A stretch of 16,981 nucleotides of DNA from Candidatus Asgardarchaeum abyssi (lineage in GTDB: Archaea > Asgardarchaeota > Asgardarchaeia > Asgardarchaeales > Asgardarchaeaceae): positions 1 through 16,981 of the forward strand of contig JBECUL010000047.1 in the NCBI GenBank assembly GCA_040225955.1, read 5' to 3'. The position numbers were made by a program, and so were the translations under genes. This document shows, one piece after another, positions 6,451 to 8,626 of the stretch (position 1 is its first letter; every line of letters begins with the position of its first letter). The notes under the pieces are model-generated. The model had not been told where the DNA came from. It did no database searches and saw only the letters and a list, made by a program, of their open reading frames with translations.

Positions 6451-6843
6451 ATGAATAGGAATTATGACAAATTTAGTGAAGACTATTGGAAAGGGGTCCT
6501 AGATGCATTATCACTTATTGAAGATTTTATTTACTGGCAGAGAGAACATCCAGACGAAAGTAAAGATATCTTAGAATTTGTTCAAGAGTGCATTAGTGAG
6601 GTTAGGAAAAAAATAGGTCCTTCTCTTCTTGACATATTGGGAATTGCCTTTGCTAAGGAAAGAAAAGAAGAAATTGACAAAACGAAAGAATCCACCTTAT
6701 ATGTAGAAACGACTTCGACAAGAGAAAGTGAACCACAACAAAAAATTCAAGAGAGAGGAGAGACAGCAGAATCAAGTGAGAATGAGATAATTTCAGAGAT
6801 TGATAAGTTAGACTTAGATTTAAATGATACAGAGGGTAACTGA
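6451..6843 (+). CDS. Hypothetical protein: helical N-terminus, acidic low-complexity C-terminal tail
   Basis: 130-aa ORF with a GAGGTGA SD and a T-rich terminator downstream. Confidence 0.8.
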   Translation: MNRNYDKFSEDYWKGVLDALSLIEDFIYWQREHPDESKDILEFVQECISEVRKKIGPSLLDILGIAFAKERKEEIDKTKESTLYVETTSTRESEPQQKIQERGETAESSENEIISEIDKLDLDLNDTEGN

Positions 6844-6855
6844 TAAATAATAAGA

Positions 6856-6890
6856 TTTCTTCTTTTTATATTTTCAAAATAAAAAAGAAA
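6856..6890. terminator. Bidirectional oligo-T terminator region
   Basis: T-rich TTTCTTCTTTTTATATTTT (6856-6874) on + after ORF 6451-6843. A-rich AAAATAAAAAAGAAA (6876-6890) reads as a T-tract on -. Confidence 0.55.
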
Positions 6891-6898
6891 CAGTCATC

Positions 6899-7098
6899 AA
6901 GTGCTAGGTTGATTTTAGGGCCCAATTGCCCTAAGTATAACTTACTATTTAGTATTTAACAAAAACATCGCCGCCTAATATATTACTTTGATATTTTTGA
7001 CATTAAGGCGGCTCTGAACCAAGACTTTCTGAAATATATGAAACTTAAAAATTTTCACAGTAATATGTATTTGGTTTCCCTATCAACCCAGCACTTTC
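6899..7098 (-). ncRNA. Candidate structured ncRNA of unknown class (~200 nt, multi-branched)
   Basis: 15-bp closing helix 7082-7096/6899-6913, fully paired with one G-U only on the minus strand. Internal stems at 7017-7022/7071-7076, 6970-6981/7000-7012 and 6915-6921/6928-6934. BRE/TATA upstream and U-tract downstream on the same strand. Confidence 0.65.
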
Positions 7099-7121
7099 AA
7101 GATAATATATCTCTATCATTC

Positions 7122-7136
7122 TATTAAAACTTTTTT
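7122..7136 (-). promoter_or_regulatory. Archaeal BRE + TATA box for the candidate ncRNA
   Basis: Minus strand reads AAAAAAG-TTTTAATA, ending about 24 nt upstream of G7098, which is where the closing helix begins. Confidence 0.55.
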
Positions 7137-7258
7137 ATTATAGAGAAATAATTTTTAAGGATACTTATGATTTTTAAAGAAAGAGTAAGAATTTTAATAA
7201 TCTTATTTACTATTTATCAGAGAATGCTAACGAAGTATATCAGCAGAATGGTGATTTT

Positions 7259-8626
7259 ATGTTACAATCATTCTTTGAACCGAAAAGTATTGCCATTATA
7301 GGAGCCTCAAAAAAACCAGGTAAGATTGGATATGAGATACTTAAAAACATAATCGAAGGAGGATATGTAGGGAAAATATTTCCAGTGAATCCAAAGGAGA
7401 ATGAAATACTTTCACTTAGGTGTTATCATAACATTAAGGAAATAAAAGATCATGTCGATTTAGCTATAATAGCAATTCCAGCAACTGCTATTCCATCTGT
7501 ATTAGAAGATTGTGGAGTTAAAGGAATCAAAAACGTGATAATAATTTCAGCTGGATTTAGTGAAGTGGGAAATATTGAACTTGAAAATAGAGTTAAAAAA
7601 ATTGCGCAGAGACATGGAATAAGAATAGTAGGGCCGAATTGTGCAGGGATTATAAACACTTGGTATAATCTCTTTGCTTCTTTTGAAGTTAGATGTAAAC
7701 GTGGAGGCATTTCCTTGATTTCTCAAAGTGGGGCTTTTGGTGGAGCTTTTATTACTCGTGCAAACTACGAAAACGTTGGGATTTCAAAGTTTGTAAGTTA
7801 TGGCAATGCAATCGATATAAATGAAAGTCATCTAATAAGATATATGGCTGATGATAAAACTACAAAAGTGATAGGGATTTATTTAGAGTCGACAAAAGAT
7901 GGTAGAGAGTTCATTTCGGCTGCTAAATTAGCTTCTAAGAAAAAACCAGTAGTTGTTCTAAAAGCTGGTAGAACGATGTCAGGAAAGAGAGCTACAGTAT
8001 CACATACAGGGTCTTTAGCAGGAGATGATAAAATATATGATGCTGCATTTAGGCAAGCAGGGGTCATCAGAGTTTTTGATTTTGATGATTTTATTGATAC
8101 ACTATATATTCTAGAAACTGGTATGCTACCAAGTAATGATAACATTTTTATAGTTACAAATAGTGGTGGACCTGGCGTTTTAGCCGTCGATGAATGTGAA
8201 TATATAGGGTTAAAGGTACCAGAAAGTAGCTATGAGTTAAAGGAAAAACTATCATTTTTACCACCTATATGTAGTATTAAAAATCCAATAGATTTGGTAG
8301 CAGATGCTAACTATAGCCGTTATTACGATACATTAAAGGTTTTAGCAGAAAGTAATGAGGTGGGCGGAGTTATAGTAATATGTGTTCCCCCAATTTTTAT
8401 AGATCCTATGGATATTGCTAAGGCTATAGTTGATGTAAAAGCAATATTTGATGAAAAAAAGAAACCCATGATAGCATGCTTTATGAGTGGAGATGTTGTG
8501 GCAGAGAGTATAAAATTTTTGAAAGAAAACAAAATACCTGTTTTTCAAACTCCAGAAAGAGCTGCCCGTGCAATGCAAAAGTTAGTTTTAAGAAAAAAGA
8601 TCATAGAACGATTACAATCATCATAG
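7259..8626 (+). CDS. acdA: Acetate/acyl-CoA ligase (ADP-forming), alpha subunit
   Basis: CoA-binding N-terminus (FEPKSIAIIGAS...GKIGY, PVNP), IVGPNCAG, SQSGA, phospho-His motif SHTGSLAG, TNSGGPGV, NPIDL and TPERA. No ATP-grasp domain is fused. Confidence 0.93.
   Translation: MLQSFFEPKSIAIIGASKKPGKIGYEILKNIIEGGYVGKIFPVNPKENEILSLRCYHNIKEIKDHVDLAIIAIPATAIPSVLEDCGVKGIKNVIIISAGFSEVGNIELENRVKKIAQRHGIRIVGPNCAGIINTWYNLFASFEVRCKRGGISLISQSGAFGGAFITRANYENVGISKFVSYGNAIDINESHLIRYMADDKTTKVIGIYLESTKDGREFISAAKLASKKKPVVVLKAGRTMSGKRATVSHTGSLAGDDKIYDAAFRQAGVIRVFDFDDFIDTLYILETGMLPSNDNIFIVTNSGGPGVLAVDECEYIGLKVPESSYELKEKLSFLPPICSIKNPIDLVADANYSRYYDTLKVLAESNEVGGVIVICVPPIFIDPMDIAKAIVDVKAIFDEKKKPMIACFMSGDVVAESIKFLKENKIPVFQTPERAARAMQKLVLRKKIIERLQSS

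Follow-up and report, generated by a model that had tools for sequence, protein, structure and literature searches.

A candidate orphan small RNA gene beside acdA in one genus-level lineage of Asgard archaea

To our knowledge, almost nothing is known of the non-coding RNAs (ncRNAs) of Asgard archaea past the universal ones. In other AT-rich archaea, orphan ncRNAs are reportedly encoded in GC-richer islands, such as the HgcC, HgcE, HgcF and HgcG RNAs of Methanocaldococcus and Pyrococcus that Klein, Misulovin and Eddy are said to have described in 2002. Here we examine a 16,981-nt stretch of DNA from Candidatus Asgardarchaeum abyssi (the window: the whole stretch analysed, positions 1 to 16,981 of contig JBECUL010000047.1, GenBank assembly GCA_040225955.1), in which the 415-nt spacer between a 130-aa open reading frame (ORF), ORF130, and acdA contains an element of about 200 nt. 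An earlier note, made from the letters of the window, had proposed that this element is an independently transcribed multi-way-junction RNA of an undescribed family. On balance, and by a modest degree, we favour reading minus-strand positions 7098 to ~6880 as an independently transcribed, non-coding, structured small RNA (sRNA) gene of ~200–220 nt. Like the Hgc RNAs, the candidate is a stand-alone gene with its own transcription factor B recognition element and TATA box (BRE/TATA) and an oligo-T stop, it has GC-richer paired islands in an AT-rich spacer, and it has a size (100–250 nt), a narrow phylogenetic range and an orphan status of the same kind. The element differs from the Hgc RNAs in having no sequence or covariance-model similarity to them (in Rfam, none scored) and in being only 33% GC; its GC content is above that of its surroundings (0.33, vs. 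0.22–0.27 in the flanks). Thus the candidate resembles the stand-alone kind of archaeal sRNA and matches no described family, and is probably an orphan sRNA gene of one genus of Asgardarchaeia.

The host genome (G000) is a 2.64-Mb metagenome-assembled genome (MAG) of 189 contigs, 93% complete and with 34% GC, and is the sole genome of its class in the reference set. Within it, the closest models for the candidate are the genes for signal recognition particle (SRP) RNA and RNase P RNA, which have the same promoter type and spacing and whose 5′ and 3′ ends likewise form a long helix; these two RNAs differ from the candidate in that both are present full-length elsewhere, above the Rfam cut-off, whereas the candidate is AT-rich and lacks their motifs by covariance-model score. 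The minus-strand BRE/TATA noticed earlier is indeed in the sequence, as AAAAAAG followed by TTTTAATA; it opens with the same ten bases, AAAAAGTTTT, as the SRP RNA promoter of G000 (C79:728). The SRP RNA gene is preceded by AAAAAG-TTTTTTAA and the RNase P RNA gene by GAAAAG-TTTATATT. Taking predicted 5′ ends, the candidate RNA starts 31 nt after the G of the BRE; the equivalent distance is 30–32 nt in the SRP RNA gene and ~30 nt in the RNase P RNA gene. The 12-mer class to which the promoter belongs (AAAAAGTTTT, then two A/T) has only 21 occurrences in G000 (both strands, 5.3 Mb), so that its placement by chance at the correct distance from the fold is unlikely. In addition, a T precedes G7098, which is a typical initiator context, and the two marks generic to stand-alone archaeal sRNA genes, a BRE/TATA of their own near −27 and a stop at an oligo-T run, are both found here. 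As a separate observation, a BRE/TATA of the form RAAAAG-TTT(W)5, ~30–32 nt before the RNA 5′ end, is common to the SRP RNA (C79:728) and RNase P RNA (C8, ~13020) genes and is useful for finding further ncRNA genes in this genome; orphan occurrences of this promoter type include those on contigs C24 and C58.

The minus strand of 7098–6899 is predicted to fold well beyond the expectation for its composition. Its minimum free energy (MFE) is −56.5 kcal/mol, vs. −36.7 ± 3.8 kcal/mol for 200 dinucleotide shuffles, none of which is equal or better (RNAfold; z = −5.22, 0/200); the corresponding z values of two relatives described below, L023 and L030, are −6.95 and −6.40. Pair probabilities single out four robust helices, at RNA positions 3–17/186–200 (the closing helix, P1), 40–62 (a hairpin), 83–133 (the GC-rich arm) and 165–184 (the 3′ hairpin). 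The predicted architecture is a multi-way junction in which P1 encloses a mini-hairpin, an AU-rich hairpin, the GC-rich arm, a linker and the 3′ hairpin (Table 1). Much of this agrees with the earlier note: its 15-bp closing helix with one G-U pair, its 7-bp hairpin and its U-tract at 6890–6876 all stand, and the GC-rich arm that it placed at 7012–6970 can be extended outwards via a tandem G-A 2×2 loop. Two further helices do not hold up. The AACCAA/UUGGUU closure of a long arm (7076–7071/7022–7017) lies outside both the MFE and the maximum-expected-accuracy (MEA) structures and is 72% paired over the three variants; the weak UACU/AGUA hairpin is likewise outside both structures, has a pair probability of ~0.5, and has its pairing destroyed by substitutions in L023 and L030. 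The linker was described as single-stranded and U-rich, and this single-strandedness is not conserved, because pairing of the linker is predicted for L023 and L030; its U5 tract is invariant, and nowhere does the RNA vary more than in the 3′ half of the linker. The element contains no ORF of ≥60 aa, in keeping with the empty ORF track noted before.

The minus strand is favoured as the transcribed strand, because of the G-U pairs and the promoter spacing and BRE evidence. P1 holds one G-U pair, G7089–U6906, that would become A-C on the plus strand, and all three G-U pairs of the window fold become A-C mismatches when read in that direction; the plus-strand fold is weaker (MFE −49.7 kcal/mol, z = −4.70). 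The spacing between the minus-strand promoter and P1 is constant within 1 nt across variants, and the opposite side of the element is altered by a 22-nt insertion.

Table 1. Predicted features of the candidate RNA locus and its flanking genes (window coordinates)
Feature	Position	Strand	Remarks
Candidate RNA body	6899..7098	minus	~200 nt, predicted; 5′ end placed at G7098 by inference
BRE/TATA promoter	7122..7136	minus	AAAAAAG + TTTTAATA; invariant in L023 and L030
P1 closing helix, 5′ arm	7082..7096	minus	15 bp with 6899–6913; pair probability 0.9–1.0; invariant across variants
P1 closing helix, 3′ arm	6899..6913	minus	pairs with 7082–7096; U6906 opposite G7089
Mini-hairpin GG-GAAA-CC	7073..7080	minus	pair probability 0.71; GGG-ACG-CCC instead in L023 and L030
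AU-rich hairpin	7037..7059	minus	7 bp in window, 10 bp in variants; from MFE and pair probabilities
GC-rich arm	6966..7016	minus	CA/UG, tandem G-A loop, GCCGCC/GGCGGC, bulged U, UAAUGU/AUAUUA, 18-nt loop; core pair probability 0.9–1.0
U/A-rich linker	6935..6965	minus	carries U5 tract 6965–6961
3′ hairpin	6915..6934	minus	7 bp, loop AAUUGG; pair probability 0.7–1.0
3′ tail GAUGACUG + oligo-U terminator	6876..6898	minus	T3, T6, T4 runs straight after P1; conserved in L023 and L030
ORF130 (130-aa ORF)	6451–6843	plus	one flank of spacer
acdA (ADP-forming acetyl-CoA synthetase by Pfam)	7259–8626	plus	other flank of spacer

Related loci (L numbers) were reached by protein searches with the neighbour genes in unbinned assemblies (metagenome contigs). 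The relatives of acdA have 94% and 70% identity, the next 58%, and those of ORF130 have 100, 84, 62 and 58% identity; an Asgard assignment, as suspected earlier, agrees with the actin gene that the syntenic loci carry and with the records of the relatives, which their sources name ‘Asgardarchaeia’ and ‘Odinarchaeota’. Three versions of the RNA were recovered: the window type (identical in L035 and L037), L023:2636–2838 (216 bits) and L030:3471–3673 (220 bits; L032 is identical to L030). All three have the same gene order and the same four helices, and across 43 core pairs in the three variants every cell (129/129) is a standard pair on the minus strand. Changes in stems comprise one compensatory A-U to G-C replacement, in the 3′ hairpin of L023 and L030, and two G-U/A-U changes; there is just one compensatory pair because the comparison is among three variants at ~92% identity. 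The P1 arms do not vary at all (0/30 columns), and the 14 pairs of the GC-rich arm are 100% kept, with one G-U/A-U change. In the AU-rich hairpin of L023 and L030, a G-U pair is replaced by A-U and an added C-G pair lengthens the stem, and a hairpin persists at the mini-hairpin position despite an indel and substitutions. Overall, variation avoids paired positions (4/86 paired vs. 19/117 unpaired columns are variable; Fisher p = 0.013), and all three indels are at unpaired positions. Thus, of the homologues with covariation that the earlier note had called for, two further variants, four kept core helices and one compensatory change were obtained; all are from a single clade, and the covariation does not pass its shuffle control, as set out below.

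Several of these loci show irregularities of their own. L030:3001–3840 is a mosaic relative to window 6451–7258: its asparaginase and acdA DNA is 98.6–99.4% identical to that of the window, its ORF130 protein is 84% identical, and its RNA is of the L023 type, which indicates that the block of ORF130 plus RNA is a recombined patch. At L023:2165–2552 the gene calls split the ORF130 homologue into two overlapping ORFs (93 and 54 aa), through either a frameshift or a sequencing error. L036:1925–2266 carries an ORF130 100% identical to that of the window, and past a shared ..TATTTTG boundary an unrelated sequence of 45% GC replaces the RNA and acdA; this sequence is absent from G000 and includes an ORF start judged by eye, without a domain search, to be the N-terminus of a PfkB-type sugar kinase, and the junction is due either to chimeric assembly or to a rearrangement at strain level. 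At L031:3600–3749 unrelated sequence running to the contig end takes the place of the 5′-terminal third of the RNA (P1 5′ arm included), so that this allele is either a chimera or disrupted.

Covariance models of known RNAs provide no assignment for the element. Against Rfam 15, on both strands, the whole window has no match at the gathering threshold; at E ≤ 10 over 6700–7300 there is nothing on the minus strand and only three chance-level matches on the plus strand, far under the cut-off. Rfam scans of the relatives’ loci also return nothing, and ARAGORN finds no tRNA or tmRNA. The earlier exclusion of RNase P and SRP RNA is borne out: full-length matches to RF00373 (175.5 bits) and RF01857 (193 bits) are on other contigs, at C8:13066–13357 and C79:766–1076, respectively, and the candidate scores nothing with either model. 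For 5S rRNA, G000 has no match above the cut-off, and candidates at E ≤ 10 are on contig C78 alone, elsewhere than the candidate locus. There, at C78:8475–8677 on the minus strand (L085:1501–1703), two weak RF00001 pieces are adjacent in reversed order, the 3′-half piece (gamma domain, 25.5 bits) upstream of the 5′-half piece (beta domain, 21 bits), and a tRNA with a 66-nt intron follows directly after; this arrangement suggests a circularly permuted or rearranged 5S gene. H/ACA sRNA was rejected, given that the sole pocket-like arm needed the unconserved AACCAA/UUGGUU stem, no ANA box follows the arms, and no minus-strand Rfam H/ACA match is present.

Other systems are alike in shape only in part. 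The Ro60-bound Y RNAs and bacterial YrlA have, as does the candidate, a long terminal stem formed from both ends, a pyrimidine-rich internal region and a 3′ U-tail; the candidate differs in having no Rfam Y_RNA match and no identified conserved bulged-C helix, and no TROVE/Ro60 (PF05731) gene is found in G000 (93% complete; control genomes scored as expected), which removes this analogy. The guide RNAs of TnpB and IS200-IS605 elements (omega RNA/reRNA) are similar in size, in their multi-branched fold and in their ~15-bp outer stem. However, the candidate adjoins ORF130 and acdA rather than tnpB, the covariance model finds no second copy of it, and the 3′ regions of the nine TnpB-like loci inspected (9/10, those with E ≤ 1e-5) have 50–60% GC and are unrelated. 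Downstream of a TnpB-like gene on C10 (53701–53862), a ~30-nt sequence is the same as one arm (1274–1304) of an inverted repeat located elsewhere in the window (1274–1304/1657–1687), as would fit a small dispersed element. As in Sm-class small nuclear RNAs (snRNAs) and archaeal sRNAs bound by Sm-like archaeal proteins (SmAP), an invariant GAUGUUUUUGU separates stem-loops of the candidate, and G000 has three LSM-domain genes (C80:4814–5005, C15:34938–35132 and C96:5458–5646). The tract differs from theirs in that it fits the RAU4-6GR consensus imperfectly and is paired in the predicted folds of 2/3 variants (L023 and L030); there is no similarity to snRNA models, and U-tracts are common in a genome of 34% GC.

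Beyond the closest relatives, the search for the RNA was negative. BLAST against 60 genomes of the same phylum gave only 20–40-nt chance matches, and in 150 same-phylum Asgard genomes nothing credible was found with a covariance model built on one sequence (R1), the best match reaching 28 bits. The most sequence-like match from this model (L018) was rejected because it falls within a 681-aa ORF. Scans of metagenome and genome contigs with acdA yielded one identical short contig and otherwise distant homologues only, and the more distant acdA contigs have another gene order with no space for the RNA. No homologue of the element was found in viral contigs (pattern scan) or in phage and plasmid records (BLAST). 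Within G000, the four best matches examined as possible trans targets or paralogous segments (short BLAST) sit in coding regions and resemble chance codon words, and a genome-wide search for a ‘UGA-stem-GAUGA’ family was dropped as not interpretable (14 matches, mostly AU/GU-rich, with no shuffle background). Occurrence of the RNA is restricted to a single genus-level lineage, within the class named Asgardarchaeia by sources.

The nearest informative locus outside this lineage is L025, from a record named Candidatus Asgardarchaeia by its source, with an acdA 70% identical and the gene order of the window lineage (RLI – asparaginase – ORF131 – acdA – ThiS – MoaA – MoaC – MoaE – actin). At L025:2910–2939, on the minus strand, there is a perfect 11-bp hairpin with a 6-nt loop (30 nt) whose UGA and GAUGA flanks are exactly like those of P1; of its six basal pairs, three differ from P1, with both sides changed. 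The covariance model places this hairpin on P1, leaving the interior as a deletion (11.6 bits, E = 0.092 over 29 kb; ~1e-3 scaled to the spacer alone), and it is probably a homologue of P1. If so, the interior was either gained in the window lineage or deleted in L025. Because the predicted promoter spacing would place the start inside the hairpin, an RNA gene is not claimed in L025.

Several points weigh against the existence of a functional RNA gene. The syntenic spacer of L025, at 214 nt, lacks the 200-nt RNA, so that the expectation of an RNA in the syntenic spacer upstream of acdA holds for L023 and L030 and not for L025; together with the absence from the 150 sampled Asgard genomes, this implies that the RNA is young or dispensable. 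The variants are few (n = 3), at ~92% identity, and all come from a single genus-level clade; the shuffle control for compensation is not significant (156/500). Furthermore, the RNA is no better conserved than the spacer upstream of it (91.5% vs. 91.6% identity, window against L023), and four-fold degenerate sites of the flanking genes, at 71–78% identity, are below both. The AT-rich flanks supply TATA-like and T-rich strings on both strands, and two internal U5 tracts on the minus strand (7052–7048 and 6965–6961) could stop an archaeal RNA polymerase early. Lastly, the protein partners and trans action proposed below are purely conjectural. The proposal of an independently transcribed RNA of an undescribed family is thereby upheld as to the absence of an Rfam match, the single copy, the ncRNA-type promoter and the kept core helices, and is weakened by the two failed helices and the restriction to one genus-level clade.

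The main competing explanation, which we consider unlikely, is that the element arose recently, through an insertion or expansion that is selectively near-neutral; it could, for instance, be what is left of a small non-autonomous mobile element whose terminal inverted repeats were 15 bp long. It would then be hairpin-rich DNA in a pre-existing spacer palindrome, functionless even if transcribed. Its presence varies among syntenic relatives, the L025 spacer holding the 11-bp hairpin in about half the length of the window spacer; the element ends form a near-perfect inverted repeat; the neighbouring spacer is as conserved as the RNA; the L030 block of ORF130 plus RNA is a recombinant patch in otherwise 99%-identical flanks; and the L036 and L031 contigs break within or next to the element. 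Miniature inverted-repeat transposable elements (MITEs) are likewise ~200 bp long, end in inverted repeats of 15 bp and are present in some relatives but not in others. A MITE would differ in being dispersed in copies with target-site duplications, which the earlier note had named as grounds for rejecting an RNA gene; the element is single-copy in the 2.6-Mb genome by BLAST and covariance model (collapsed repeats being possible in a 189-contig MAG), and hence that objection does not apply. Moreover, no solo element ends occur elsewhere in G000 (short-word BLAST), there is no target-site duplication past a GA dinucleotide (the flanks ..CTTGA and GATGA.. have just GA in common), and no transposase, tnpB or integrase gene is beside the element. 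Viral contigs, phages and plasmids gave no match to the element. The strong ncRNA-type promoter at the correct distance also weighs against this explanation, as do the stem changes, which all preserve pairing, including those in internal hairpins, and the avoidance of stems by variation.

An explanation that we consider improbable is a plus-strand cis element, such as a structured 3′ untranslated region of ORF130 or a long regulatory leader of acdA. The two genes are co-directional, the plus strand folds well too, and a TATA-like TTTTTATATT is located ~25–30 nt upstream of the plus-strand start of P1. However, this string lacks the A-rich BRE of the ncRNA promoters of the genome, and in L023 and L030 the insertion moves it 22 nt farther from P1. 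The acdA genes of the window and L025 keep TATA-like strings and a GGTGA ribosome-binding site near their starts, L025 manages without the element altogether, and the G-U pairs of the window fold would be mismatched on this strand.

A palindromic site acting at the level of DNA (an operator, or an inverted repeat related to recombination or replication) would account for the invariant P1 arms and for a palindrome at the same position in L025. This is very unlikely, given that the interior hairpins show changes of an RNA type (G-U/A-U, and compensatory A-U to G-C), the G-U of P1 is a mismatch in DNA, and no Orc1/Cdc6, integrase or regulator gene is alongside; the L025 hairpin has only basal pairs and flanks in common with P1, and no binding-site-like sequence.

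A box C/D-like or kink-turn (K-turn) RNA bound by L7Ae, with the 200-nt fold lying between D′-like and C′-like boxes, has hardly any probability in our view. It is suggested by AUGAUGA in L023 and L030, 11–12 nt upstream of UUGA (the C-to-D′ spacing), by UGAUGA after P1, and by the UGA before and GAUGA after P1, which form tandem G-A plus U-U and recur as the flanks of the L025 hairpin. The window itself has AUGAUAG instead (7113–7119); the C-like box, which is complete in L023 and L030 alone, comes after the TATA box but ahead of the predicted start and would be untranscribed from that promoter; no D box (CUGA) is found at guide distance downstream in any variant, and the C-box heptamer is probably fortuitous. 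Nor is a K-turn compatible with P1: the tandem G-A adjoins a perfectly paired helix with no bulge, a shifted register produces an A-A clash (reasoned from sequence alignment), and the K-turn register needs three P1 pairs opened and leaves no 3-nt bulge. The minus strand has no match to a C/D family. Least probable of all is a small protein gene (27 aa in the window, 7058–6975 minus, with a GTG start; 37 aa with an ATG start in L023 and L030), a frame that is open in all variants with conservative changes (I/L, K/R, V/I), but in which the first codon position takes most of the changes (4, vs. 1 at the second and 2 at the third), the C-termini differ through a 1-nt indel, no GGTGA-type ribosome-binding site is present, and the frame falls within strongly paired helices.

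Under the favoured reading of the element as an sRNA gene, transcription would start at G7098, ~31 nt after a BRE/TATA of the SRP/RNase P RNA type, and would end in the oligo-U run past the closing helix. P1 would be stacked on a terminal tandem G-A, formed by the 5′-terminal GA of the RNA with the GA after P1, and the GC-rich arm would likewise be seated on a tandem G-A. The RNA may have grown from a simple hairpin that persists in the nearest other genus, or its interior may have been lost there. Action in trans as a protein-bound particle would be the likeliest mode, with SmAP/Lsm proteins as candidate partners at the U-rich linker or the 3′ U-tail and other proteins at the G-A motifs, while the conserved unpaired segment 7036–7021 and the loops would be left free for contacts. 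SmAP binding to the U5 tract is only a candidate, because of the imperfect fit to the Sm consensus and the predicted pairing in two variants; ORF130, as a possible RNA partner, gave no Pfam or Atlas lead. A bolder form of the proposal, which we hold to be rather doubtful, is that the element is the founding member of an Asgardarchaeia-specific ribonucleoprotein (RNP) RNA: a four-to-five-way-junction scaffold, recently elaborated from an ancestral spacer hairpin, that is Lsm/SmAP-bound at the U-rich segment or 3′ U-tail, carries other proteins on its tandem G-A platforms, and acts in trans.

The practical value of the finding is limited, because it concerns one genus-level clade of an uncultured organism with no function yet assignable. 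If real, the RNA represents one more family, as yet undescribed, and comparison with the 30-nt hairpin of the sister genus would show the rise or loss of a complex fold over a short evolutionary time. If the RNP-RNA proposal is true as well, the locus would represent the de novo birth of a structured RNP RNA caught in the act, in the archaeal lineage nearest to eukaryotes.

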